The position numbers were made by a program, and so were the translations under genes. A DNA stretch of 60,695 bases, filler included, from Globobulimina sp. (lineage: Eukaryota): the NCBI GenBank assembly GCA_003354225.1. It is 15 parts of 15 records of this genome, joined end to end, with 100 filler letters (N's around TTAATTAATTAA, not from the genome) between each part and the next. Parts side by side here need not be neighbours in the genome. Positions count along the whole stretch, not along the records: positions 56,749 to 60,695 come from PIVH01001841.1; 14 more parts are not named here. The stretch is one strand, 5' to 3'. A model generated the notes under the pieces. It saw only the letters and a list, made by a program, of their open reading frames with translations. It made no database searches and was not told where the DNA came from. Positions 5,460-60,382 of the stretch are shown here, one piece after another. The first letter of the stretch is position 1. Each line of letters starts with the position of its first letter.

Positions 5460-6806
5460 TCAATCATCAACATCATCACTATCCACTGCATCACTCTCTG
5501 TCCCGGTCCGTATACTCGAACTGCCGCTGCTGCTCTCCTCCAAATCCTCCTCCTCCACTCCAACATTACCCACATCCGCATTGCCCTGCACATTCTGCAC
5601 TGCATTCTGCTCACAGTTATCACCATTGCTTTGCGGGTCAGTCATCGCCCGATTTCTGCCATAACCATGTTGCTGTTGATAACTATTTGCTGCATTCTGT
5701 GCAATCTGTGCACCAAAATGTGTATATGCGCCTGGAAACTGTTGCTGATAATTATTCTGCGCCGTGTTCCCAGTCAAATTGCGAACAGATTGGGCTCTCC
5801 GCGCCTGCATCATTCTGTGCTGTGCATTGATATTCATATTCATATTCTGCTGCTGTGCCTGCTGAGCATTGATAGTCTGCGGTTGGGCCGTATTCCCAGT
5901 CAAATTTCGAACGGATTGAGCTCTCCGCGCTTGCATCATTATGTGCTGTGCGTTGATATTTCGCTGTTGTGGCTGCTGCGGAGTGGCAAAATTGACATTG
6001 CGTTGCGAAGAAAACATCGCCCGATTCATGGTCGGCGGCGCTGCAACATTCTGCATCCTGTTGTTGTTAGGTTGGATGTTCAGATTTGGTGAGGAAGCAA
6101 TTCTCGTTCGAGCAAAAGCAGCGCGTTGTTCTTGGAGATAGATATTTTGCTGAACAGTGTTTGAAGCAACAGCATTATTTGCAGCTGCAGTCGAAGCCGG
6201 ATTCGCTGTTAAATTGCGTTGCGAAACACTGCTATTTAGGAATTGGATGAAATTCTTGCTCGCTGCGGAAGACTGCGCTGTTTTATCCGTGCTTTGTGTG
6301 TGTTGGTTGTTGGAGTGTGAGTGGCTGAGATTATTTTGTTGTAGATTTGGAGCGTAATTTGGAAAGCTGTGCTGTGCAGAAAGTATTTGGCGATTTGGAA
6401 TATGTTTCGGTTTGTCGATGATGTCAAAGCTTACTTTTTTTATATTGAGCGCTGGTTTGGTGATGTTGCTAGTCGTTGTTTTTGGTGTTGGTGTTGCAGA
6501 TTTAATTTGGTTGTGGGTTTCGGAGACTTTGTCTGTTGGATGCTCGATGTCGATGTTTGCTGCGATGGTTTTGATGCCAAATGAGATTTTATTTTTGGCT
6601 TTTTTGTGTTTGCAATGAAGGTATAATATCGCAGCACATATCATTAGTACTATGATGGTGGAGAGAATGCCGATTATTACATATAAAAGAGTCTCCTCGC
6701 TATTTGTTGGCGTGGATGTTGTGCTAGATGTTGATTGCGGTGTTGTTAAACGTATATTGATGCAAATACAGGCAATTGTTGACAGAAGAGATGAAAACGA
6801 ATGCAT
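5460..6806 (-). CDS. Single-pass membrane protein with Q/N-rich cytoplasmic tail
   Basis: 448-aa ORF. TM helix LLYVIIGILSTIIVLMICAAILYL is followed by basic residues. Contains an internal 25-aa duplication and an acidic C-terminus. Confidence 0.7.
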   Translation of the reverse strand: MHSFSSLLSTIACICINIRLTTPQSTSSTTSTPTNSEETLLYVIIGILSTIIVLMICAAILYLHCKHKKAKNKISFGIKTIAANIDIEHPTDKVSETHNQIKSATPTPKTTTSNITKPALNIKKVSFDIIDKPKHIPNRQILSAQHSFPNYAPNLQQNNLSHSHSNNQHTQSTDKTAQSSAASKNFIQFLNSSVSQRNLTANPASTAAANNAVASNTVQQNIYLQEQRAAFARTRIASSPNLNIQPNNNRMQNVAAPPTMNRAMFSSQRNVNFATPQQPQQRNINAQHIMMQARRAQSVRNLTGNTAQPQTINAQQAQQQNMNMNINAQHRMMQARRAQSVRNLTGNTAQNNYQQQFPGAYTHFGAQIAQNAANSYQQQHGYGRNRAMTDPQSNGDNCEQNAVQNVQGNADVGNVGVEEEDLEESSSGSSSIRTGTESDAVDSDDVDD

Positions 6807-7713: not shown

Positions 7714-8121
7714 TTTATTGCTATCATTTACAAACTAAACAACGTTGAAATTAACGGCGTTTTGCATAAAAACATTTGAATTTTGAAGGTGAACACTGTT
7801 TTTCTACATTATTTTGGTTGATTATTGTTTGTAATTTGCAGTGCAAATGGATTTGGTGATAAATGTGCCTTCAATTTGTACTTTGATTATATATCAAATG
7901 TACATTTATTCCATAATTAAGTACAAATCATTCAAAATATAATAAACCAAATATGATAAAAAAACAGATTTATGCAAAAAGCCACAGAAAAACGTTACGA
8001 AATTATGTTATTTGGGTAACGNNNNNNNNNNNNNNNNNNNNNNNNNNNNNNNNNNNNNNNNNNNNTTAATTAATTAANNNNNNNNNNNNNNNNNNNNNNN
8101 NNNNNNNNNNNNNNNNNNNNN

Positions 8122-11100
8122 TGTTGCTGTTGCTGTTGCTGTTGCTGTTGGGCCGCAGCATTACGTATTAAATTAATTTGATTCATTTGATTTATTTGCT
8201 GTTGCGCCGCCGCAATCTGTTGCCTCTGCAATAGTGCCGCAGCAGCCATTGGGTTAAGTGTACTTTGTATAATCCTCGGCGCCGTATGTCCAATATGATG
8301 AGTCGCTAAATGTTGAGTAGAATGAGTATGAGTATGAGAAGAATGTGATGAATTATTGTTATTTTTATTTAATAAAGAACCTGTTGATGGTAATATTATC
8401 GTATTACTACGATATTGATGTGTCGCGGCAGCATTTGGCACTGGGACATGTATCGTGGTTTGCTTATTATTATTCATATTGTTGTGACTGTGACTGTGAT
8501 TATTATTCATTATCACTTTATTGTTTGCCGTTGGCGTATTGGCAGTGATCATATTGGGATCATTTTGAAAATCATCCACATGGATAGATGGCGCTCGACC
8601 GCCCGTATAATTATTTGAGCGAAACCTATCCGTCCCACTCATTCTCATTTGTTGCTGCTTATTCATATTCATATTATTATGCATATTCATATTATTGTTT
8701 AATTTTATATTATTATTATTTGAGGTGATAGGAACGGCATTGAATATGGAAGATATCCCTTGCACCATTTCCATATACACAGAGGGCGGATATACTGAAA
8801 AATCATAATTTGTGGAATAGGAACATAGCCGAATAATGGATAACATATTGCCATGCCACCAATTCGTAGTCGACTCTGCAAATAATTTATACCACACACT
8901 ATCCGCACAAAAATATTTCCGATTCTTATTGTATTTACTAAACCGACCATTGGCATATATCTCCGTTAACAATTCATCCGCGCTCAAATTGTTATGATTT
9001 AATAATATTTCTTCTTTAATGTTGTGTTTATTTTCAAGTACGACATGGTTTGCAGGTATCTCCGCTTTCACTTTCTTTTTAATGTTGCAGTCATTATCTA
9101 ATACAATATCGACATCCCTGTCGTCGCCATCCTCTTCCTCCTCGTTATTCACATGCGGGACGGACTGGTTTTGCATAAATATATCATTACAATATTGTAT
9201 CTCATAAATAATATGATTGAAACCAATCTCATTCAACTTAGTCAACACATTCATGATTGGTTCAAACTGTGTACTGAACAAAGTATTCCATTCGATATAT
9301 TTCTGCACATTTTCCACATATTTTCTTTCATTTTGGTTCAACTTATTAATATGTTTGCAAATCATTGAAATGAACCACGTCAAAATAATTAAACATTGCA
9401 ACTTTTCAGAAACATGCAAATTAAAATTATGCGAACTATTGGTATTCGCATACGATTTTAAAAAGGATAACGATGACATTAATATCGTTTGAATTAACTG
9501 CAGCGGGAAATATTTAATCACGATATTAATATTAATATTCGGCAACGATGCAATTCTGCCATAAATAACAAAACAGCACATCCAAAATCGCCATTGGAAC
9601 TCAGTGATAACAGTGGCGCAATTGGACGTAAATTGCGCTGCGGATAACACCGTGTTCAAATGAGATAATATAATGCCAATATCGTCGGAAGAGGGCAAAT
9701 AATAATCGCCATTCAACGCATTCCCGCCCGATATGTTATACGGGATATATGTCAATGCGCATTGTAAGATATCAGTCACTGCCACTACTAAACCACTGTC
9801 ATTCTGCGAGATGTATTGAAACAATTTGGTTAATAATCCATCCGTTTTTAAATATAAAATCCGCACAATGCGTGGATCTAAAATCCAGCAATTACAGTCT
9901 AAAAAATATTTCCTCCGCTCCGTAATTATGATCCTTTCTTCTTCTGCTTCTTTAGCTATTTTCCTATTTTTGTCTTTATCTCTATCTCTGTCCTTATATT
10001 TGGAGGAATGTTTGCTGTCTCGTTTGTGTTTCCTGCCATGTCTGCTGCGACTACGTGAATGGGAATGAGAGTGCGAATGTGAGTGCGAATGGTGGGAGGA
10101 TCGATGGTGACGGTGGTGCCGACGATGTCGCTTATTGTCAATGGGGCTGCGTGTACGGGATCGACCATTATGGCTGGAACCGTGGTGTTTTTTGTTACTG
10201 TTATTGTCATTTATGTTTGCTTGGCACTGTAATGTGATTTTATTAATTTCCTTTAATAGCTGATTGATTGGCGTAGTATCAATTTTGTGTTTATATTTGC
10301 TGCAATTGATGTACGTGGAGAGAATCGAGGGTGATACCAATGTAATACACCAGGCATCGCGAAGCATCCATGACAAACATTTGCATAATCGAATCAATTG
10401 CCACTTAGAGCTGGCCACCGCAGCGGTATTATTCATATCGGATTCCTGGCTTTTCCCTAAAAACTGACTGAAGATCATCTCAATAAATGGATTTAACACA
10501 CATTTGGCAATGTTGATATCCATTTGCGATAATTGTATATAGACACAAGGCAATATTTCATGGATGGAAAAGTCTGACGACAGTGCTAAATTCTTCATAC
10601 ATACTCTCAAAATCCGCTGTGCGCTGTTCTGTGTCAGGCGGTCGATCCAATATTGCTTCAATCCCAACACATTGACATGGATTAAACACTGATGCAACGT
10701 TACTAGATTTATATTAAATAGCTGCGGCTCATAGGCCAGCGTTTGCAGAAAGGCTTCAATTTCAAATTTCTCCCCATATAATAATGAATCATCAATGCCA
10801 TCCTCGCAGATATCATGACTTTTGTTCTGATTCTGGTTGTAATTATTGGTCGGCGGACACAGCGTAAATGCAAATATGCCAGCAATGGACTCATGAATTA
10901 ATTGTAATGCCGGATTGGGAGGCAATTGAATGTAATCATTTGTATATTCCCTGCTGCAGTCAACAAAGGACAGCGAGGACATATGGAACGGATCAATAAT
11001 GTGTGTAAAATAGTGATTATTGCGGGTAAAACTGCCCATGTCATGCGGCAAGATACGCGAAGCTAAAACGCGTTGTACTTCAAACAAATCAGCACAGATA

Positions 11101-12080
11101 TTGTATGGGTATGAAAAGGCATTGTTGACATACAACTCATTGAGATAAATATACGTTAAATGTAACGTATTGCCTAATAATTTCAATATTAATTCGAACC
11201 GTTCGTCCTCCGCTGCATTTTCATTCTTGTTGAAAAATGCTATAAAGGTACGCAGAATGATAGGCACCATATTGATAAACGACTCGCTGACTAATAATTC
11301 AATGATAGCAGGACAGGAGGCACACGCTATGAATATGGATAAGATGCTGTTGATAGAATAGAGGATGGACTTATTCTCAATATCAATTTTGTTATTTGCT
11401 GGTAAGCGTAAATGGAAAAACTCCAAATCAATGTCGTAATCGCCGCCGGTTTCAGCGGGTTCAAAGCCAATCAAAGTGGCAAATACTTTCAATATCGATT
11501 TGAATCCATGCTCTCGTAACTTGACCACTGACTGTAACATACCCACAACACACTGCAAATCATTGGCTAAGGTCTCGTTAAATGAGGGCATTCTCGGAGG
11601 CCGCGTGTATTCTTCGTCTTCATTGTTGCTGCGGTTATGTGTGTTGGTTATGGTATGGTCCTTTTCCTGCAAACTTTTGTTCATTTCTTGCTTAGATTTG
11701 ATGATTTTGGGCTGCACCGCTTGGTACATAGTGACAAAGTCAGTCAATAATTGCTGGAAGAAATCAAAATATAACGGATTTAGTACAATGTGGCTGAAGT
11801 ATTGCGACTTGAATAAGTATAGTAATAATTTAATGCCATAACCTGTGAAACCGGACGGATTTATAACACTTCGGTCCTGCGGGTTGAATGCCAGCCATAT
11901 CAATTCGCAGATGTTTACGAATGACTTTGTATGGAATAGTCCAAACGCGATCGATTCCATATTCTCGGAGTAATTGGTCAATAAATCTAAGACGTATAAG
12001 GCTTTCAACTGTTTGGCGGATTCTTTTGCGGAATGGCGAATGTGATGAAGTAATACCAATATCTGCAATTGTCGGCAGAT
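8122..12080 (-). CDS. Virilizer/VIRMA-like m6A-writer-complex scaffold, partial at both ends
   Basis: ORF of >1300 aa spanning the contig with a helical-repeat character. Late motif DRFRSNNYTGGRAPSIHVDDF matches the virilizer C-terminal FR..NTSRPPSxHVDDF signature. Includes an RS/H-rich insert. Confidence 0.7.
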
Positions 12081-16237: not shown

Positions 16238-19200
16238 ACAAAGCTCAAATCGCCGCCTTGACCGACATTATCACCAAGAACGGCGTCAAGAACTATAAAT
16301 TCAATGGTTTGTATTTATATATTTATTCCAGGTTTGGTACAAACAATGACAGTTTGTCACTGTATACACAATTAATTAGGTAATACATTCACATTACAAC
16401 GTAAAACAAACGGCGACGATGTGGCCACCGCCGGCAAATTAAGCCTCAAATTGGACGAAGACGACATCGATAACCAACGCACCATCAACAGCAACGGTGT
16501 CAACGTGGTGAATGACAAAAACGGCAGCGACTATTTGATGGGCTTTGGTTTCCAACATGGCCTCAAAGACAAAGACGACAAGAAAACGCCCGAAAAGAAG
16601 AACTTTTATTTCAAATTGCCGCCGCAGGCCAAGAAGTACGTGGCGTTGCAGGCCGACTCTCTGGATATCCCCAAAACCGCTTTGGTGTTAATGTTAGGCG
16701 TGTTGACCACCAACGGCCCCATTCCCATCTCGCATTATCGTGGCTGGAAGACCAACAATCCAAACATTGTCGGGCTGTTAAACCCTCGCAAACGCAAAGC
16801 GGCGGGCACCAAAACCGACATTGTGCCCAATTTGGACGCGTTGACCGACGCCAGCGACAAGAACAGCGACGCGCTATCCAGCCACAAATCGCCTGGAATG
16901 AACAATAAGTCCTCGCCTGGTATGTTTCCGTACGATTTGCCTCGACAAACCTACTGCAATTTGTACTTACCCACAGTGGGCAGCGTAGGTTCCGGCTCCA
17001 CCACGTTATTCCACGAAAACGCGTCCAATGGACATGGCAGCAAACGCTCGTCGCCCTTGAACAGCAGCGTGAAAAAGCACAAAATGATGATTAGTAACAG
17101 CGCGTCGTCCGCCTTGATGCGCGCGCCGTTGGTGAACAAAGGCACGTTGAACAAAGTGAACCCGCCCTCCGCTGCCACGGCGTCCGCCTCGGCGCCCGCT
17201 GGCAATAAACGCATGTTTCAGTATCCAAACAATTCGGCCCTAGGCGCGAGCAGCTTATTTCATAACAGCTCGGCGCGCAACTTATTAGTCAACAACAAGA
17301 TGAATATGAACGGCGGCATGCCCAATGGCAGCAATTTGACCTTGATCTCGCCGCGCGGCGTCTCCCTTATCCGCATGAAATCGAATGGTACGTCGACGTT
17401 GTTATCGCCTACGGCGGCCAGCATCTTATCGCCGCGACAGCGCACCAATAATAATAATCTGATGGGCGGCAATTGCAACGCGGCTCCGCCGGCCGTGGTG
17501 GTGCCCAATACGACGGATTTCAGCCCCATGAAACAGACTGTCGGCAACGGCTTTTCTATGACCACGCCCATCGCCAATATCACGCCGGTGCATATCCCGT
17601 ATTTGGGGCAAGGAAATCAAAACGGAATGAACGGGCAATCGCCGCTATCCGGCTTCCAATCGCCAATGAATTACAACATCAATACACCGCAGTCACCGTT
17701 GGGTAATTATCCTGGAATCACGCCCATTATCAACGCCTTTACCCCTACGGCGACCGGCGTGAATGCCATCACTCCCACGGCGAGTTTGCCGTTTTATTGG
17801 AGCGGCTTACATAAAAACAATAACACCAACACCATGGGCAATATCAATATGGAGAATGACCCGCTCGCTCCACACAACAATATCCCTCCGTTTTTGCCGC
17901 AGAATCAGCATAATATGAACAATGTGCAAGTGCCGAATCACAGCGCCAACCCATACGTACAGTTTAGTATACAGTGATTTGTAAATAAGCTACAAACCTT
18001 GTTCTATTTGGTCATGTTTTACCTTTTTTGTGTGCATGTTTTACACAGAAAACAGTTGCAAAACAACCCGTTATTGCAGGCAAACAACAACCTCATGAAT
18101 AATGGCATGAATAACGGCATGAATAACATGAACAATAACATGAGTAATATGAACATTGCTTCGTCGCCCATTGGCAAACCACCGCCTTCCACGTTCTTTA
18201 AGTATCCGATACCGAACGAAGAGCCCAAATCGTCGCCGTCCAACAGCAATAATATCATGAACGGCAACGTGTTGCTAAACAATTTGAACAATAACCTCAA
18301 TAATTTAGTGCAACAGCAAAGCATTAACTCCTTCACCTCCAACAACGACATGAATAACATCAACAACAACATGAACAGCATCAACATGAACAACATCAAC
18401 AACATCAACAACATGAACAATATGGGCAATATGAACAACAACAACAATATGGATGACGACGGCATGGAGGAGCGACAAATGGATGAGCCGCCCAGCTTGG
18501 ATGAGATCAATAATATGCGCAACATCCCTTCGGTCATCTCGCCCAACGGCACCACGCCGGTCGTCATGATCACCAATTTGAACGAAGATGAGATTGACTG
18601 CGACAAAATCTTCACACTCTGCGGCGTCTTTGGCGACGTGCAGCGCGTAAAAATCTCGTACCATAAACGCGACACCGCCTTCGTGCAGCTATCCAATCAC
18701 CGCCAGGCCAAACACGTGGTGACCTCCTTGAACCGCATGCAATTATACGGCAAGATGATCCATGTCAACTTATCGCGGATGACGCGGGTCAAATTACCCA
18801 AGGATTCGCCAAACAGCGCCATGATGTTCCCCGACGCCAAGTTCCTGACCAAGGACTATACCAATTGCAAGAAGCACCGATACAGCAAAAAAGGAGCGGG
18901 CGGCATCAAGTACTCGCCGTTGAGCATCGGGCAGCCGTCGCATATCTTACATATCGCGAACTTGCCCATCCAATCGGAGGCCAAAGACCTTCAGGAATTC
19001 CTCTGTGGCAATGGCATCTTTTGTAAGGATAACAACGCGGCGGGCGGCAAGTCGCGCTTTGCCGGCAATGACAAGATACAGTCGATCGAGTTGATTGGTG
19101 TCAATAATAAGTTGGGTTCGTGCCAGGCGTTCGCGAAGTGCCACAGCGTGGACATTGCGTGCCAAATACTGATTGATTTCCATAGCAAAGAGTTCCTAGG

Positions 19201-40553: not shown

Positions 40554-42404
40554 TTTGGCGTTTTTCACAGTTTTTCGTTGTGTATTCTTTGACACCTTTG
40601 TTTTTTTCACATTTTCCCGTCTGCGCGATGACGAAGGGCGGTCTACGCAGTCTTCGTAACCGATTCTTATGCAACGATCGCATGGCCGTTTCACATTACA
40701 TCTGTGGTATATTGACAGTTATGGATGTAATACAAAGTCAGTGACATTAACATAACAAACCTTGTCTTTGCTTTCCAGCATCGAATGCATGCGATTGCGG
40801 TCTGTTTGCGGCGAGTTTTAGGGTTTTTTATGCGCCGCGCCTCCTCATTCTTTAATTGTTGTTCGTGTTTCTTGATAGATGCATTTATGTCTATTTCTGT
40901 GGGCTTTGCTGCTTCTTTGCCCTTTCGCTTATTGGTGGTTTTCGATTTTATGTTTTTTGCATGTTTGGCAGTTTTGGGAGTCTTTGGGGTCTTTGTTTTT
41001 TTTTTTATCATGGTTCGTTTTGGTTTGGTCTTGGTTTTTGATAACTTTGTGGGTGAAATTGTTGGTGGCGGCGGAGGCGAAGGAGGTGGAGGAGGCGGCG
41101 GACGCGGCGGAGGCGAGAACTTATTGAGTTCGTGTTTGATGATCGTCGGCTCTATTTTTACCGATGTCAAATTGTTGATACTTGCCTTGGATCGCGTATT
41201 GTATTCAAATTCAATGTGTGGCGACAACCTTTTATATTAATTATATTTGTGCAGCATATATATAAACAACATATAATAAATAAAACATTTGCTGAATAAT
41301 AAAATAAATTTAGATTACAGGATTTCTGAGTATATTAATTGACGGACTATGTACATACATATTAATGGATGGCGTGTTTGTATTTAATGCGTTGACATTA
41401 TGAAAGCGTGGTTGTTCTGGTAACACTGATAAAAGTGTGCGATTATTAATATTATTGTTCACACTCCGATCATTTGAATTGTTTGCATTAAATATTGGTG
41501 GCAGTTGAGGTATTTTATGCATTGCCGGCAGTTGAGCCATATTGATGGAATGGTTGGTAATGTTGGGGATTTGTGGTATATTTGGTATATTTGGGGGTAA
41601 ATTGTTGTGTGCTATATTGTGTACTGCATTGATATGCGTATTATTCTCAATGCGAATCGTATTAAGAGGCAGCATTGGTGCATTGATTGGGAATTGCGAC
41701 CTTTGCGCAATCGGGTTATTACAATTATTATTAATATGAAGATGATGCTGTTGTTGCTGTTGATATTGTGCTTGATTTACTTGATTGTGATTCAAATTCA
41801 TATTACCGGCAATATTAATATCCGGTACCAACGGCGGGATACTTGGCGAGAGTGAATATGAAGGTATAATGCTGGAATTTGTTGTCGCATTACAGTTATT
41901 ATTACAGTTATTATTACAGTTGTTATTGATGCAAGTATTGCAATGGGTGGATGTCGAGCTGTGTGATTGTGTTTGGGTTTGGTAATTATACGATGATGAA
42001 TCGTAAAAATCCACATGTTCTGCTAATGCAAATGGCTCTGACGAGTCAACATTGTTCTCGGGCGTCATATGGAAATGGCGTTGTGGTCCGGGACTATTAT
42101 ATAACGACAAATTCGGGTAATATTGAGGCGATTGCTCGGACACTGGAGGGAAAGGCTCGGGGGACAGTTGAAAGCCGCCCATTGGCGAAAGTCGATGATG
42201 ATCGAAGTGGACGGACTCATTTGGATATTGTGAATGGCGGGGTATTGGCAGTGAAGAGTTATTTATGATGTTCATATTGATTGTTGTAGTATCCATATTG
42301 TTGTGGTAACAGGGCTCTGATTGGTACATAGGAGTTTGAATACACGGTGAAATCACTGAAAATTGATTGTGAAAGTCTCCCGCAAATTCATTTAATTGGT
42401 ACAT
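40554..42404 (-). CDS. Zn(II)2Cys6 binuclear-cluster transcription factor, introns 41229-41358 and 40702-40760, 3'-truncated
   Basis: Splicing gives ACIRCWKAKTR|CNVKRPCDRCIRIGYEDC = C-x2-C-x6-C-x5-C-x2-C-x7-C. Upstream are N/P/Q-rich and basic regions. The start MYQLNEF is inferred. Confidence 0.85.
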
Positions 42405-43679
42405 GCGGTCATTTACATAATCGGTATGAACACCCTCTGTTTCATGTAGAAGCATTAGTAGTAGAGGGGCAAAGAGAAAGTTTTTTGGTTTTGATGAAAA
42501 GAAATGAGATGGTAACTGCATGCACTTTATCTTAAAAGGGTAGGATTGTTTCTGTATACGGAGAATACCATCGTACGAACCTACACAAGTTAAATAGTTG
42601 CCTAAATAGCACCCTTTTTCGTTTTTGTATTGAAATAGTCCCCTAAATAGCCCTCCGTACGTCGTTGCATACACTCCCCGACCCTTTTGAGATAAAAGAA
42701 ACATTACAGAATGCGGGTTTCAAAAATCGTTGTCGGTTTTCCATAGTATTTTATATATAATTACGCATTGAAGATTAAAGGATTTGCAACTTTGCTATTA
42801 CAGCCATTTACAGGGACTAAAACCCAAAAGTTGTAAATCCATACGACAATGATTACAGCATTAAATCCATAAAAGCATTAAATCCATAATTCCACGACAA
42901 TGATTTTTGCGACAATGATTTTTTTAACGTTACCGGAAATACTTCCCACTGCAATTACATATGTTTGAAATCCAGATATCTGAATATATGTTAATTTTGT
43001 AAACACAAAAAAAATATAATAAAAAGTAACATACAAATCGTTGCATGCTAAATAAACTTAACATGTACGCATGATATCATATAATTGAATTCCTTCCAAT
43101 TAAGATGGTTCATAGTATGTACCGCTCCGGAATTAATATTATATGACATACGCTATGCTCTATCATGATCATACTATAACTTATATTTCTATATCGAGAT
43201 TAACAAATCAATCAACCTTTTAGATTAAATTCCAGAAATATGTGGTTTTTGTAAATCAATTATGTGGTATATTTTAAAAAAAACCACATATTAATAAATT
43301 CCAGAAATTAAATCAATATTCAATTCCAGAAACAATTCCACAAAACGGAATTGTCAGCATTATGTAACATAATTAACATACATTATTCCACTGTTTGTTT
43401 CGGAAGATATACACTACAAATGTAAAAATCTCATATTATAATAATGTTTGGTTTGGGTGTATACTTCGCAACAATCCATAATTAAAATGTAGAGCATTTT
43501 TAATGATCACGTGGGTGCAAGGCTGTAATAACAGCTTGAACAATGATTGAATACCGTTCCGGGTGTCCATATATATATCTATTTTCATTTTCCATTATTT
43601 TTCCTTTAGTTTATTGACAAACATGAACACGGTTTTTGCTTTAATATAAATACTAACCAACCAAAAAAACTAAGTAAAC

Positions 43680-49991: not shown

Positions 49992-52184
49992 ATGGCAATG
50001 ACGAATTTAAATTACAACAATCAGAACGACACCAACCCCAAACAACAACTAACTGAGCCCTCTCCGAAGCAACTCCCCAACGGCCATTACACCAATTACA
50101 CCGCCGCCAACCTATCCAACTTATCGCCCATCTACGAAGGCGAGATATTCGCGTCGCCCACCGCTACAATCTCGCCCTCCATCTCACACAATACAATTGA
50201 TAATAACCACGTGGTACTCTTCAACCACGGCCCTCCTAAACTCAATAATGAACCCATGGCCGTATCGCCCACCACAAGCACCTCCTCCTCCAATTCGTCC
50301 AACACACCAACGCCTACCACCTGCAACACAGCCAATTGCCATTCCAATTCATTGTTCAATATCGATCCCTCCACAAACAAGTTCAGTACCCACACCACCA
50401 CGCATTGCATAGCAATGACAAAAATCTCTATAAACAGTGCGCATTGCATCCCCTCGGTGGGCTTAATGAGTGCCAACCTGTCGAAAACATCCACTTCTTC
50501 CTCATCGCCGTCACCCTCCTTAGACACCACCGTCTCGCCCGTGACCAAAATGGACTTATATCGCGATTTGAAGATCTTCGAAGAAATGGATACGGAGACC
50601 AGCCACAACAACGTCACTGTCGATTATCTGACTGGTGATACCCACTGCGATTACCACGAAAAGCCGGCAAAAGCAGCAAAGACAAACAAGCATCGCGTCT
50701 CAACCACGCCGGTCATGAATGGCTGCAATGTGCGCTGTGTATGTCATATATTTCTGCATCATCGGTATTGTACATATGTATATATCTGCGTTGTATAACA
50801 GGTAACTACAGATTTTCCAAACATTTATAATCTGCCACATTCTACAAAATCAATGCCGGAGATAACTGGCAATGGCCATGTACCGGCACCACATTCCCCA
50901 CTGAACAGCAACTCAAACGACCATAAAACGCGCAAGAAATGCACTAAAATGGGCAAACAAGCCGCAAATACGAGCAGCAAACACAAGAAAAGCGACAAAC
51001 ACCGCCATAGACACTGCCATCCACATCGACACCGTCACAGTCGCAGTCGGAAGAAAAAAAGGAAAAAGTCAGCCGAGAATAGTTACAGTGACAGCGACAG
51101 CGAGTTGCAGAAGAAAGGAAAGATGAAAGAGAAGATCAAGAACATTTCCATTCTGGTCCCGGGCGATCCCAATGGTTTATATAAGTATTGGAAGCGCACC
51201 AAATCGCACAAGAAACGGCCGAAACACACAAAAAAGCCGCAGTCGCAGTGCAACGCAAACGATCCTTTGAGCATTAAGAACCGCGACCGACTGAACTCGT
51301 TCCCTCCCAACAACCACATTTATCCAAAGCAGTCGCCGCGTCCGCATTTGCATACTTTCCATACGTTGTCCTCGCCGTCGTCGTCCAACAGCAACTCGTC
51401 GTCGATGGGCAGTTCGCTGAGTGTCCCCATAAAGATCTGCAAATCGCAGAGTCTCTCCAATTTGCAGGACACGGAGCTGAGCAAAGCCATTATTATCCAT
51501 ACGCCCACCAACCACAACCACAACGACGAGAACCAGGCCTACAATGAGTACAGTTTTAGCGTGATGGGGCTGCGCAATTATAGCAATCAACGCGTCCGCC
51601 ATCGCCAGCACCAGCACCAGCAAATAGGCTGCGACCTGATGAGCCATCAACGCGTCCGAATGAACACGTATCCGCCGTATGGCGACATCACCGACAATGG
51701 GCACCGCACCGCGCCGAAGATCTCGTTGATCATCGAACGCGTCTCTCCCTCGCCGGGACTGCATAGCCGCACTGAGGCGAACTCGAAGGAGCCGCAATGG
51801 CATTATACGTCGCGTACTGATCATCGACAAGAGTTAAGCGGCAAACCTTTGATATATACACAATGGGCGCACCGCGAACCGTTTCTTTTGCACAGCAACG
51901 TTGCCGGCGAGGCGGACCGCGGCAAGTATGGCTGTTATGGCTATCCGAAGGCAAACAAAGTGATATTGCGCGAGAAGTGGAAGGACGAGGAGGAGGATGT
52001 GGAGATTGCGTCGTTGCCATTGGAGTGCCTGTCGGAGCCCAATGCGTCGCATATAAAAGGAAAGCGGAGGCGGCGCAAAATAGCACAGAGTCAGAAGAAT
52101 CTGTATAATATACATCCGTCGATGCCGTCGTTTATGAAAACTAAAAATAACCATTCCAATCATGGCAAGCTGCACGATTTGTGA
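49992..52184 (+). CDS. Low-complexity S/T/H/K-rich protein (two long exons, intron around 50738-50801)
   Basis: Two long same-strand ORFs with higher GC, separated by an AT-rich intron-like stretch ending ATAACAG. Exact splice sites are uncertain. Confidence 0.65.
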
Positions 52185-55670: not shown

Positions 55671-56648
55671 TTAAACAAAAATGTCACTTTGTATCCTATC
55701 ACCGCGGGTTGTTTTAATTTCACTTTGTGGAGAAAATAAATCATCTGAATCATTATCAGTCTCATCATCTGCATCCATGATATCTGCGGTATTCACTCCT
55801 TCTTTGTTTACTTGATTCGTTTTCATTAATATTGTTTCTATATTTTGTTGCTTATTCTTTTTAGCTGCGGACACAATTGATGGTGATGCACTGGTTTGAG
55901 TTAATCCAATCACAGCTTCAGCTCTGCGCACATTCTTTTTAATTGTCATCAATTTATAACCATAGATCATCGATATCAACATTACACAACATATAATTCC
56001 TACAGCTGATATTATAGCACATAACAAATAAAATGATTTCCTATTCATCCCATCACTTTGTATCGGAGCTACATTTATTGCGGTTGATGAAGTTTCATCC
56101 ATTGCCACTCCAGCATGAGGGTCATCTGTAAATTAACAAATAAATGAGACTACAACTTATATATCACATATTACAATGATTTATTGATTACCTTTTGATA
56201 TCGTTGGTACTTTTATTCGCATTTTTGTTGGAACTTTGGTTGGCCTTTTTGTTGAATTTTGAGTTGGAACAAATGTTGGATTTTTCGTTGGATTTGTCGT
56301 TGGAACTTTGGTTGGATTTTTTGTTGGATGGATTGATGGATTTGATGACGGATTGAGTGTGAGCGCAGAGGATGGGAATGCAGAAGGATTTGATGTCGGA
56401 TTTGATGTGGGTTCCGTTGTTGGGATATCAAGGCAATAACATGTACAGTATGTACCACATCGAGCACTTCCAGTGAGCGATATAAGTGTTCCAGTATTTG
56501 ATCTGTCATTACATCTTTGATTGGAAGCACAGTTTGAAGTTATTGTACATTCAGAAGCACCATCTATTACTATGTTACATGCGTTTGCATTGCATAAATA
56601 TCCGCCGTCATAAATAGTGGTTTCTACACAATTTGCTTCACCCAATGT
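55671..56648 (-). CDS. Single-pass surface protein with Cys-rich ectodomain and PTxxPT mucin-like stalk, intron 56126-56191, 5'-truncated
   Basis: PTTEPTSNPTSNP...PTKNPTKVPT repeats. Spliced SK|DDPHAG. TM FYLLCAIISAVGIICCVMLISMIY. Confidence 0.8.
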
Positions 56649-57011: not shown

Positions 57012-58882
57012 TCAATCGTTACTCAACAATACATTTCTCGAATGTTTGTATTTGGAATATTTTGAAGATTTGGAGGATTTTGAGTCTTTCCTGTTCTTAT
57101 ATGTTATGATTGGTTTTAAAATCGCAACAACTGTAATCAAGTTATGGTCAACTAAATCCTGTATAACCTTTGCAATATCTTTGTATGCCAGCGGTGCTTC
57201 CTCGTACATTAAGCTTTTATCCCCACAAATAACATGACTTTGTAATTCCGTTTTTTTTAATTGATTTACATTTGGACATTTCTTGGACATTTTTTTTACT
57301 GCCTGGCTCCTCGTTAACTTTCGCCCGGCGCCATGAGCCAATGAATACCCATAATTTCTCTGTTCCTCGTTTGGTTTCACAATGTATGAATATGCGCCAC
57401 GTGAACCTGCAATAACAACATAGCCGCAATCACTCGGCGCCGCTCCTTTTCTATGAATGTACCAGAACTCTTCCTTGTTTTCCTCAAATATCGCTACCAA
57501 TTCATCCAAAATACCTATACACTGCGAATATAACTGTCCATCATTACTTTTCTCACAAATATCAACCACATCCCGCTCCATTTTACGCTCTGTATTTCCA
57601 CTGTCCATTTCTCGCAATATTTCTCTTTCCACGCTAACAAATTCATGTTTAGCTTTACCGCACAAATAATTATGATAAACATCAATATGACAGATACAAT
57701 TATCAAACGCAAAAGCGGTGCCTGCTCCCATGCAACGTAAAAACCTCTGAGCAATAATCATTCTATTTTTCCTCGCCCACTTCAATGCATTGTCATGCAA
57801 AAGCATATACGATTGAAAATCATCAGAGCCGACATCCAGCGGTTTCTGCGCTTTATGCGCTTTCAAATAATTGTCCAAAATGGCAGCACCAAAGCCTCGC
57901 GAACCAGAATGTACGGTAAGAAACAATTTATTCGCATCCCAGCCCAATTCAGCAAACAAGTCGCCATCAACGATCTGTTCAATACACTGCAACTCCGCGA
58001 AATGATTGCCATGGCCGATGGTCCCCAGTGCGTGGTCAAAGGCATGTATATTGACTCCATTTTGAATGACGGCATCAATGTCAATTCCATCTTCCTCTGC
58101 GTTGGAAGGCCAATCTATTAACTTATTACGCAATATTTGTTGATCATGAATCCAGGGCTCATCTAATTTGATATCATGGAGCCATCGATGCAACCTTTGA
58201 TCATTGACAATATCTTTGCAAATATTCGTTTCAATCAAAGCCATTCCGCAGCCGATATCTGTGCCAATTAAGTATGGATATACGTACTGCTGCGATACTA
58301 AACTGACGCCAATCGGATAACCTTTACCCGGATGAATGTCGGGTTGGGCCACCACTAATTTCATTCCTTTTAAACGTTGGCAAGCTTCCAACTGTTTCTC
58401 TGCATCGCTGGAGATTGTGGCGGATGATACAATGCAGCGCATCAAACAAATATGTTTTTGCGTTGCGCCCATTTCCTTACGTATACCGACATATTCTTCT
58501 CCCAGACTCACTGAAATGGATAACGCTGTAAAAAGAAATGATGTGTGATCAAATTCATTTTTTTTTGTTTGTTTGTTAACTTGTTTTGAAATTCTTAGCG
58601 TATTGAAGGGAGATAAGCTGTTTGATGTTGCTTTTGGTAATTTCTTCTCCTGTTTGATTCAGGAAGAACTTGTGTGGCTAATATGTGATATAATTTATAA
58701 TGACTTATTATAATTTGAGAGAATTTGCGTTGTTAACTCACTTTTTTTTTGATTCTTAGTTTGTCCTTTGATAGTTTTACCAGTTTTTTGTAAAATTTAT
58801 CGGTTGAGTCTGGTTTGATTTTACATGTTTTGTTGACACTGCGGTTTGCATTTAGACATATTTGTATTGTTATTGAAGCCAT
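57012..58882 (-). CDS. rtcB: RtcB2-type (PrfH-coupled clade) RNA 3'-phosphate/5'-OH ligase with extra N-terminal domain; exons 58882-58742, 58677-58581, 58525-57012; 583 aa
   Basis: Motifs QPDIHPGKGYPIG, IGTDIGCGM, LGTIGHGNHFAELQ, VHSGSRG, DVYHN, HRKGAAP, GSRG, SLAHGAGRK, SHVIC..LMYEEAPLAYKDI and PIITYK. Two phase-consistent GT-AG introns (64 and 55 nt) extend the ORF to an ATG at 58882. Confidence 0.92.
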
Positions 58883-58966
58883 TATTCGTGTATTTTAAAT
58901 GTCAAAAACTTAAAAGATAAATGCGTCGCCAATAGAGTCACTTTGCAATAGCGTAGTGCCGTCGTC
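58883..58966. promoter_or_regulatory. 84-bp divergent intergenic region (putative bidirectional promoter)
   Basis: Lies between the ATG at 58882 (-) and the ATG at 58967 (+), so both 5' UTRs and promoters must fit here or overlap. Confidence 0.55.
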
Positions 58967-60382
58967 ATGAGTCAATTCAGTCAACGTATACGTAAAAAGT
59001 ACTGCCGTTGGGGTGATGATTGTAGATATTTCAAACAAGGCAACTGTTATTTTTACCATCCACCACCATACAAAAGTAGAAGTATTAAAAATGAAACGAA
59101 TACTAATTACGTTTCAAAATCTGATTACGATGCATTTACTAATTATCCATCGAAACCAAAAATTATAGCAAATCCACGTAGAGAAAGAACTTTTGATCGA
59201 TCATTAATACAAAAAGGGATTAATTTCTTTGAATATCGCTATTCATTTGGAATAATTGGATATAAATTGGATGAAGCAACCGACGAATATTTGTATTTAT
59301 GTATACAGCATAAATACAAAGGGAAAGAATGGGGTTTCCCCAAAGGACATTTTGAACCAGATAAGGAATCAAATGCTGGCTACGATACAGCAAAAAGAGA
59401 ATTTACCGAAGAAACTGGCATTGAATTTAATACCACAAACATTCTCTCAGTCGATTGGGATAATCCATTCATTTTAAATTACGAATTTGTTCGCAATGAC
59501 GAATTACGCAAAAAATGGACAGTTTTATTTGCAGCAAAGCTGTCAAACACTGCCGCACCAAAAATCATTCGACCGCATGAAATTAACGCTGTTCAGTTTT
59601 TAAATATCGCGCAATTTCATGAAAATGTGCGACATAAAGAATGCAAAAATGTCATTCAAGCGTTGAATTCGACATTAATTAATTTAAAACCAGTGCAACA
59701 ACAGCAAAATAATGACAATGTAGAAAGCAAACAGGATTTTGAGATGGAGAGAGTTTTAATAATTTTGCGCGGATTTCCGGGTGCTGGTAAATCGACATTA
59801 AGTCAAGCAATAATCGGATATTATAAAGCATTGGATATTGGTAACAATGAGGTGGTTTCCTGTAGTTTTGACAAATATCATTGGATTGGAGAGGAAGGGA
59901 ATGGAGTATTTAAATTCGATGCGAATATCCATAGAGCGACAAAGAAGTGGTGCAAAGATGAAGTATTTGGCTCAATGAAAAAAGAAATGAAAGTTATTAT
60001 TGTCGACAATGGGAATTTTGAAATATGGGAATATTTGGATTATGTTAAATGGGCCAAACAGTATGGATATAAAATATTAATTATTGAAATTAAATCGGAG
60101 AATAAAATTAAAAGAATTGAACATATTCAGCATATCCTTAATAATGGTTTTGTGGCTGAGTGTTATTTGTGTGTTATGCAACAAACGCGCTGTAAAATGG
60201 ATATACCAAACAATGCAATGATTAAATTTATACAGAAATGGGAATCGGATAAGAACGCAATTGTTGTTGAGCCGAAATTTAATAAAAATGATGAATGGAG
60301 TAATAAAGAATTGGAAGTTATATTGAATGGAATGAAAAGTGCACAAAGTTTTGAATATCCAGAAGATACTTGGCAGGAATGA
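58967..60382 (+). CDS. CCCH zinc finger + Nudix hydrolase (Ap4A-hydrolase-like) + P-loop polynucleotide-kinase-like (N4BP2/AAA_33) fusion
   Basis: CRWGDDCRYFKQGNCYFYH; SFGII..WGFPKGHFE..TAKREFTEETG; LIILRGFPGAGKSTL..FDKY..FKFD..WC..IIVDNGN..WEY..AKQYGY..IE. Confidence 0.85.
   Translation: MSQFSQRIRKKYCRWGDDCRYFKQGNCYFYHPPPYKSRSIKNETNTNYVSKSDYDAFTNYPSKPKIIANPRRERTFDRSLIQKGINFFEYRYSFGIIGYKLDEATDEYLYLCIQHKYKGKEWGFPKGHFEPDKESNAGYDTAKREFTEETGIEFNTTNILSVDWDNPFILNYEFVRNDELRKKWTVLFAAKLSNTAAPKIIRPHEINAVQFLNIAQFHENVRHKECKNVIQALNSTLINLKPVQQQQNNDNVESKQDFEMERVLIILRGFPGAGKSTLSQAIIGYYKALDIGNNEVVSCSFDKYHWIGEEGNGVFKFDANIHRATKKWCKDEVFGSMKKEMKVIIVDNGNFEIWEYLDYVKWAKQYGYKILIIEIKSENKIKRIEHIQHILNNGFVAECYLCVMQQTRCKMDIPNNAMIKFIQKWESDKNAIVVEPKFNKNDEWSNKELEVILNGMKSAQSFEYPEDTWQE

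Follow-up and report, generated by a model that had tools for sequence, protein, structure and literature searches.

A spliced eukaryotic gene for an RtcB2-type RNA ligase with an N-terminal beta-grasp domain in Globobulimina sp.

The stretch of DNA analyzed here, called the window, comprises 60,695 nucleotides (nt) from Globobulimina sp. (GenBank assembly GCA_003354225.1) in 15 parts joined end to end. On its minus strand, positions 58882-57012 hold a eukaryotic nuclear gene of three exons, whose spliced product of 583 amino acids (aa) consists of a beta-grasp domain followed by a complete RNA ligase of the RtcB2 type. As far as the sequence can tell, the gene very probably encodes an active and expressed ubiquitin-like (Ubl)-RtcB2 ligase. 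Damaged 18S rRNA may be its main substrate, by analogy with E. coli RtcB2, although we hold this assignment with somewhat less than even confidence. When the two are blended, an active Ubl-RtcB2 ligase that repairs 18S rRNA is an explanation that we consider evenly poised between right and wrong. Eukaryotic RtcB2s and the idea of 40S repair free of PrfH are already in print, and the window gene is one more member of this family.

The joined coding sequence of the gene is 1752 nt long and in frame. Exon 1 (58742-58882, minus strand like all parts of the gene; 141 nt, 47 codons) starts at an ATG (58882-58880) that lies 15 nt downstream of an in-frame TAA. The first half of the beta-grasp domain is encoded here, as far as the conserved basic K-L-R-x-K-K-K motif, and the exon ends at a GTGAGT donor. 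Intron 1 (58678-58741) has 64 nt, GT..AG ends and a guanine-cytosine (GC) content of 23%. Exon 2 (58581-58677; 97 nt, with phase 1 at the 3' end) contributes the central part of this domain and aligns with the N-terminal domain of the homologues, and is followed by intron 2 (58526-58580; 55 nt, GT..AG, 24% GC). Exon 3 (57012-58525) completes the beta-grasp domain and continues through a linker, the entire RtcB2 ligase domain and a tail rich in lysine and serine to the TGA stop at 57012-57014. The introns, at 23-24% GC, are poorer in GC than the exons, at 29-40%. A list of open reading frames (ORFs) made in the bacterial style shows only an ORF of 499 aa with a spurious GTG start (57012-58511) and a separate ORF of 49 aa (58733-58882); thus the N-terminal domain is hidden from such a track. 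Residues of the ligase are given below in the numbering of the exon-3 ORF, to which 84 is added for the numbering of the spliced protein.

Contigs from sequencing runs bear on both introns. Runs X1 and X2 come from one sample of a relative that is about 95% identical to the window, and their RNA type, like that of a third run, is a guess. One contig in each of X1 (depth 34.7) and X2 (depth 24.1) carries the joint 58677 to 58742, which drops exactly the 64 nt of intron 1 (CT..AC on the plus strand). In record 4 of X1, 94 letters lie between the pieces that match 58405-58528 and 58742-58875, where the genomic interval is 213 nt. Since 94 equals 213 minus the sum of 64 and 55, these letters fit exon 2 with intron 2 absent from the record as well; this absence follows from the arithmetic of the record, as the aligner listed no joint there and skipped a low-complexity segment at 58550-58583. 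Run X4, which is DNA-like and 99% identical to the window, covers 57539-59335 without a break, introns included, so that the introns are genomic. In the relative's contigs the match to the window ends at 58875, 7 nt before the start codon's first base (58882), and 28-29 unrelated letters follow; the region of the start codon and the 5' untranslated region therefore differ in the relative. Exon 1 also carries six extra in-frame letters in these contigs, behind 58808.

How the window and its relative differ in sequence was examined as well. Among the 31 differences listed over 57021-57560, 23 fall on third codon positions, and the insertions and deletions, of +3 and +6 nt, keep the frame. The ligase gene thus looks as if it were under purifying selection, judged from this sequence pattern. 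The N-terminal part of the model is also met in other proteins: 12 longer relatives all open with a domain of about 85 aa that aligns to the spliced N-terminus across all three exons. With a leave-one-out profile built from 12 homologues, the window being excluded, the spliced N-terminus scored 42.5 bits, while the best of 200 shuffles reached 6.9 bits; exon 1 alone scored 26.9 bits, compared with 11.8 bits for the exon 2/3 part. Three independent lines, namely homology over the splice sites, spliced contigs and the pattern of change, support the gene model. An earlier reading made from the sequence alone had proposed that two introns supply an N-terminal stretch of about 90 aa missed by the ORF track, and the spliced contigs and the 42.5-bit profile score agree with this proposal.

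The ligase domain occupies 57096-58394 (ORF residues 40-472). The exon-3 ORF matches the Pfam family PF01139 (RtcB) with 220.8 bits (E 5e-65, cut-off 27) in two stretches, which are divided by a lineage-variable insertion of about 60 aa (57471-57659, ORF residues ~285-347). It also passes the NCBI cut-offs of the RtcB2-specific families, with 349.8 bits against 271.8 for TIGR03073 and, marginally, 407.6 against 407 for NF007153. By comparison, 13 RtcB paralogues of other kinds from bacterial genomes scored 128-198 bits with TIGR03073. Bacterial RtcB2-type proteins align to the ORF at about 300 bits and 36-42% identity, and the best-matching chains of solved structures give 83 bits (Thermus TTHA1785), 80 bits (Pyrococcus RtcB) and 64 bits (human RTCB). 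A PADLOC scan left the ligase unmatched.

Residues D58, H60, D85, C88, N169, H170, H201-R205, H280, H353 and H393-R397 are invariant in an alignment of 17 sequences, and the motifs P-D-x-H, D-I-G-C-G, G-N-H, H-S-G-S-R, H-N and H-G-A-G-R are also invariant in a motif table of 87 rows. We take the residues of these motifs to serve metal binding and guanylylation, as in the published RtcB structures. The codon of His393 in the H-G-A-G-R motif (57333-57335; His477 in the spliced protein) marks the presumed guanylylation site and is invariant in 17 of 17 sequences and in all three groups of the motif table; this histidine is presumably the nucleophile, as in published work on Pyrococcus and E. coli RtcB. 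The sequence-only reading had listed all of the metal and guanylylation motifs as present, and both comparisons bear it out. Two further motifs, L-Y-E-E-A-P-x-A-Y-K and T-Y-K, are common to the window protein and bacterial RtcB2 and differ in the outgroup of the table.

An AlphaFold model of the exon-3 ORF has a mean predicted local distance difference test score (pLDDT) of 78 and a predicted template modelling score of 0.81, and in Foldseek it matches Pyrococcus RtcB with GMP and Mn (4dwq) at E 4.7e-26 and a template modelling (TM) score of 0.66. The insertion is modelled as three helices of low confidence (residues 289-343, pLDDT 40-65). Long acidic inserts occur at the same site of the ligase in the homologues P0001 and P0005. 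The basic C-terminal tail, 27 aa rich in lysine and serine (57015-57095), has a pLDDT below 50 at residues 477-499; similar tails are present in P0001 and P0003, and none is found in P0004.

The family assignment was examined in two trees. In tree 1 (87 rows, LG+C20), the 14 rows that bear the N-terminal domain form one clade inside the RtcB2 ingroup, with a Shimodaira-Hasegawa-like approximate likelihood-ratio test (SH-aLRT) support of 91, or 99 when P0040, a probable fragment, is included. Tree 2 (93 rows, LG+G4) used the ligase part only and left out three rows with long branches as well as half of the bacterial rows that lack a name. The separation of the RtcB2 ingroup from an outgroup of other RtcB paralogues had a SH-aLRT support of 97 in tree 1 and 100 in tree 2. 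In tree 2, the 39 bacterial rows form one clade with a support of 100 and without any eukaryote, and the 38 eukaryotic rows lie outside it in four unresolved groups. The window protein pairs with P0001 (support 98) and then with a protein labelled Nyctotherus. Over the exon-3 ORF, its identity is 36-41% to named eukaryotic members and 52% to the nearest unnamed one, and over the trimmed alignment columns it is 64-65%. The trees agree with the NCBI cut-offs and with the low scores of the solved RTCB and RtcB chains (64-83 bits), and together they support placing the window ligase in the RtcB2 clade rather than with canonical RTCB, as had been proposed from the motifs. The phylogeny, which the same reading had suggested as a check, groups the window protein with the PrfH-linked bacterial RtcB2 proteins, apart from other paralogues. 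The ligase domains of the eukaryotic family as a whole group with the PrfH-coupled bacterial clade or beside it.

The origin of the eukaryotic group was considered with an approximately unbiased (AU) test. A tree in which the 42 eukaryote-type rows were held together was not rejected (p 0.948), and the constrained tree was 57.7 log-likelihood units better than a quick free search. Because of this test and the shared domain fusion, the likeliest history on sequence grounds appears to be a single ancient transfer from bacteria, after which the ligase was joined to a eukaryotic adaptor domain. Later transfers from one eukaryote to another are also likely, because copies from rotifers are interspersed with protist and environmental sequences.

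The N-terminal domain spans 58485-58882 with both introns inside the span (spliced residues ~1-93). A profile of 11 such domains was compared with 1.84 billion representative proteins and gave 234 matches at E<=1e-3, 31 of them at E<=1e-10; proteins of the DCX/DCDC1 type were reached at E 1e-14 to 1e-8. From the 150 listed matches, 54 of the longer ones, about half of the very long being omitted, were scanned with Pfam. Among these 54 were 28 RtcB fusions, 11 multi-domain doublecortin/DCDC1/KHA proteins well above the Pfam cut-offs, 5 proteins with SAP and/or RING, 1 with KHA only, 1 that was probably spurious, and 5 without a family. A model of residues 1-86 of the homologue P0002, made from an alignment of 72 rows, has a pLDDT of 85.5 and the order b-b-a-b-b-a-b. 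Its matches in the PDB, at TM 0.6-0.74, include CIDE-N (DREP2 4d2k, 0.72), doublecortin domains (5ip4, the human DCX C-terminal domain, 0.70; 2dnf; 6b4a), SUMO and ubiquitin. These results support the prediction that the N-terminal stretch of about 93 aa is a conserved beta-grasp, or ubiquitin-like, domain of the DCX/CIDE-N/KHA kind. The earlier suggestion of a ubiquitin-like fold of the DCX-KHA type thus gains from the reach of the profile into DCX/DCDC1 proteins and from the match of the homologue's model to CIDE-N and DCX.

The likeness to DCX, CIDE-N and KHA lies in profile and fold; the difference lies in its fusion to an RNA ligase in the present family and in the scores of its single sequences, which stay below the family thresholds. 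Neither tubulin binding, as in DCX, nor polymerisation of the CIDE type is implied by the likeness of fold. Exon 1 of the window alone gave no match in the Pfam scan.

Some matches of the domain profile have other partners. In P0321 the beta-grasp domain lies between an AlkB-like 2-oxoglutarate oxygenase and NADAR, and in P0373 between a 2H (2'-5' RNA ligase-type) phosphoesterase and an EEP nuclease. Together with the SAP/RING fusions, these sequences hint at a shared adaptor for enzymes of nucleic-acid repair or quality control. P0388 (306 aa) has KHA and a weak match to dual-specificity phosphatase. The homologues P0006, P0007 and P0112 have an extra region of about 200 aa between the beta-grasp domain and the ligase, without a Pfam match, which P0388 may resemble.

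The extent of the family was examined with a profile of 28 full-length two-domain proteins, and the best 120 matches were inspected. The N-terminal domain is present in 101 of these, the other 19 being bacterial-type proteins of about 377 aa or fragments. All 28 named eukaryotes that were checked carry the domain, one of them marginally. In most family members it begins at residue 1-10, which leaves no room for an organellar presequence. Named carriers among the best 120 include, in the fungi, chytrids, Mortierellomycotina, Basidiobolus, a basidiomycete yeast and Dothideomycetes. The others are Selaginella, a liverwort, a green alga, Arcella, Planoprotostelium, Capsaspora, Nuclearia, Acrasis, Aplanochytrium and four bdelloid rotifers; source labels add Nyctotherus and Ancoracysta. 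The rarity, or singular domestication, that the sequence-only reading had implied is therefore not sustained, because the same two-domain protein occurs in many eukaryotic lineages. The family is also routinely annotated: the Capsaspora owczarzaki member, for example, is entered in databases as 'release factor H-coupled RctB family protein', and some members are called 'tRNA-splicing ligase'.

The genomic setting of the gene differs from that of its bacterial relatives. No PrfH was found in the window, either with 14 bacterial PrfH proteins by tblastn (best E 0.48) or with the profile (best E 1.4), 1232 N of the window being unreadable; the earlier statement that none is seen in the contig agrees with these searches. 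Around the bacterial relatives, 19 of 25 picked downstream ORFs scored above the cut-off of the PrfH family TIGR03072, and with the PrfH profile prfH was found within 3 kb in 42 of 52 bacterial loci; the ten without it include several with short flanks. Because no prfH is adjacent, the gene is classed with the RtcB2 protein clade and not with the operon system.

Compared with bacterial RtcB2 of the rtcB2-prfH operon (E. coli ATCC 25922 type), the window protein belongs to the same clade by hidden Markov model cut-offs and phylogeny, has the same catalytic and clade motifs, and is predicted to perform the same chemistry, in which a 3'-phosphate and a 5'-OH are sealed via a His-GMP intermediate. 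The bacterial enzymes have about 375 aa, whereas the window gene has two introns, the N-terminal beta-grasp domain, the insertion of about 60 aa, a basic tail, and no PrfH in the window. With the eukaryotic RtcB2s of Tian et al. (2022, PNAS, PMC9304027), of which it is a member, the window protein shares the two-domain architecture and the group in the tree. Canonical RTCB (HSPC117) has the same fold (TM 0.60-0.66) and active-site motifs; however, it is distant in sequence (64-80 bits) and belongs to another clade, and the characterised RtcB2 is inactive on tRNA.

In the main text of Tian et al. (2022; PMC9304027), 98 eukaryotic RtcB2s are reported, mostly from fungi and plants, and repair of the 40S subunit is predicted for them. 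The E. coli RtcB2 repairs 30S subunits cleaved in the decoding centre and not damaged tRNAs, and how 80S ribosomes get damaged and rescued is left open in that text, PrfH being bacterial only. According to the available text of another report (PMC13166195), RtcB2 alone, without PrfH, can repair cleaved 30S and 70S. A phylogeny of diplonemid RTCBs (PMC12699882) describes, in the text available, several acquisitions of eukaryotic RtcBs from bacteria and does not state the clade of E. coli RtcB2. In the literature searched, including the available main text of PMC9304027, no description of the N-terminal domain of eukaryotic RtcB2 was found. The other RtcB2 literature searched does not mention eukaryotes, fungi or 40S, and the available part of a 2026 review of tRNA ligases mentions neither RtcB2 nor ribosome repair, its one passage on horizontal transfer there dealing with diplonemid RTCBs.

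A mechanism for the window protein may be proposed from these comparisons. The enzyme would be charged with GMP on the histidine of H-G-A-G-R, as in E. coli RtcB2, and a 2',3'-cyclic-phosphate or 3'-phosphate end would then be sealed to a 5'-OH end. It would act preferentially on small-subunit rRNA whose decoding centre, a universally conserved site, has been cut; here this would be 18S rRNA in the free 40S subunit. The splitting of stalled 80S ribosomes would be left to the host's own rescue factors, eukaryotes being without PrfH. In the weakest step of the proposal, the ligase would be anchored to the subunit, or to a partner protein, through the beta-grasp domain and its conserved basic patch (K-L-R-x-K-x-K-R). 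A stronger version, in which the domain would be the eukaryotic replacement for PrfH coupling and bring RtcB2 to 40S subunits, or to stalled and split ribosomes, whose 18S rRNA is cleaved at the decoding centre, is a tentative suggestion that we consider more likely to be wrong than right.

Several points weigh against this interpretation or parts of it. The substrate of eukaryotic RtcB2s is inferred by analogy with E. coli RtcB2, and according to the main text of PMC9304027 a eukaryotic ribotoxin that would correspond to colicin E3 is not known. Among the bacterial loci, the top-scoring L001, L002, L005 and L006 are without prfH within 3 kb, so that coupling to PrfH is not universal in bacteria; they belong to an uncultured proteobacterium, Pyxidicoccus, an Anaerolineales metagenome-assembled genome (MAG) and a Myxococcales MAG. 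The spliced contigs of X1 and X2 are of a guessed RNA type, and both runs come from a related organism rather than from the source organism. Single domain sequences miss the Pfam gathering scores: 6 of 12 homologues gave sub-threshold hits, with 11.9-16.1 bits for KHA, 12.7-16.8 for DCX2_DCDC1 and 14.6 for Ubiquitin_DCDC1. The beta-grasp fold was predicted on the homologue P0002, and the leave-one-out profile is what ties the window domain to that model. Finally, the branching of the eukaryotic groups is poorly resolved and unlike the species phylogeny, and a single origin is not proven from these sequences.

Other functions may be considered for the same protein. It may be a general cytosolic or nuclear ligase of RNA repair or processing that joins tRNA halves, stress-cleaved mRNAs or other breaks of the 3'-phosphate/5'-OH kind, with the beta-grasp domain serving for oligomerisation or as a scaffold, without any link to ribosomes. 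RtcB enzymes, taken together, ligate many kinds of substrate; CIDE-N and KHA, which come closest in structure, mediate homotypic interactions; and the fusions of the same domain class in P0321 (AlkB-like and NADAR), P0373 (2H and EEP) and the proteins with SAP and RING suggest a general adaptor rather than a ribosome-specific one. However, the sole characterised member of the clade rejects tRNA substrates, as reported in PMC9304027, and the motifs specific to RtcB2 are kept; we regard general repair as a serious but doubtful candidate. A role on the bacterial-type small-subunit rRNA of mitochondria or plastids would suit the bacterial origin of organellar ribosomes, and other eukaryotic RtcB paralogues are mitochondrial (DpRTCB1, in the available text of PMC12699882). 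But the window protein, like most of its homologues, opens directly with the first beta-grasp strand and has no apparent presequence, which makes the organellar role improbable.

An ordinary RTCB ligase for tRNA splicing or XBP1-type processing would share the RtcB fold and the full catalytic set, and the name 'tRNA-splicing ligase' is attached to some members of the family. Yet archaeal and human RTCB chains reach 64-83 bits where bacterial RtcB2 proteins reach about 300, the protein passes the RtcB2-specific NCBIfam cut-offs and groups apart from other RtcB paralogues, and the carriers include many fungi and plants, whose tRNA splicing relies on Trl1 (PMC9304027, main text). The canonical tRNA ligase was rejected on the weak similarity to RTCB, the RtcB2 cut-offs and the placement in the tree, and we give it very little credence. 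Least credible of all is an artefact, be it a contaminating bacterial sequence, a very recent transfer into this lineage alone, or a dead pseudogene. The identity of 36-42% to bacterial proteins could be read in its favour. Against it stand the two introns of the spliceosomal type with their intron-less form in the relative's contigs, the intact frame with changes mostly at third codon positions, the eukaryotic genes in the window (ALG6/8, USP9X-like, RING and GT47), a GC content at third codon positions (GC3) that lies within the range of those genes, and the closest relatives, which are eukaryotic proteins with the same fused domain. A bacterial contaminant and a pseudogene were accordingly rejected on the introns, the intact frame and the eukaryotic relatives with the same fusion. 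The earlier argument from the introns against contamination is thus strengthened, as the ORFs of the window also belong to eukaryotic families.

Repair of rRNA by religation is established only in bacteria, and the window gene offers a clean eukaryotic example that bears introns and is apparently expressed. The DCX/CIDE-N-like beta-grasp domain, conserved in nearly all eukaryotic RtcB2s and absent from the bacterial enzymes, is the hallmark of the eukaryotic branch and adds a handle: it is the obvious place to seek a coupling partner specific to eukaryotes, which could be the ribosome, some rescue factor or the protein itself. If the repair of 18S rRNA by a beta-grasp-guided RtcB2 is true, many fungi, plants, protists and bdelloid rotifers would have a dedicated pathway of ribosome repair, and still-unknown ribotoxins of the decoding centre would act on eukaryotes. 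The AlkB/NADAR and 2H/EEP fusions would then mark a wider family of adaptor-guided enzymes of nucleic-acid repair.

Other long ORFs of the window encode an ALG6/ALG8 glucosyltransferase, a USP9X-type ARM repeat protein, a RING-H2 protein, an exostosin (GT47), an ankyrin protein and RRM proteins. The GC3 of the ligase gene is 0.39, compared with 0.25-0.67 for the other window genes. Environmental relatives of the ALG6-type protein show 69-72% identity, and its best named match is from the foraminifer Reticulomyxa filosa (40%). No Pfam family was matched at E<=1e-4 by the long ORFs (443-1332 aa) at 8070-12068, 5460-6806 and 41310-42704 on the minus strand and at 16421-17977 and 50853-52184 on the plus strand. 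The window also contains 28 runs of N, from 3962 to 56748, with pairs of 44 N about every 4050 nt and 1232 N in total, which interrupt several of the long ORFs and look like masking rather than assembly gaps.

On the plus strand, at 58967-60382, a divergent ORF of 471 aa without introns starts 84 nt from the ATG of the ligase gene. The AT-rich spacer of 84 nt (58883-58966) between the two divergent start codons is presumed to be a shared promoter region. A scan for sigma-70 promoters and terminators gave 11 sites where 9.9 were expected, the scan model being bacterial and the host eukaryotic. The product of the divergent ORF has a CCCH-like cluster of cysteine and histidine at its N-terminus, seen by eye, a NUDIX domain, and a P-loop kinase of the AAA_33/KTI12 type. 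Its NUDIX domain is closest to the Ap4A-hydrolase-like CT771 (4ilq, E 3.9e-9), and the nearest clusters in the protein Atlas are bacterial fusions of NUDIX and KTI12/AAA_33, which at a score of 0.81 are a lead only. Contigs of X1-X3 cover this ORF without joints. On the other side, 3' of the ligase gene in the window, an ORF of 154 aa (56181-56645, minus strand) has a cysteine-rich N-terminal part and a tail rich in proline and threonine that matches the PT disordered repeat.

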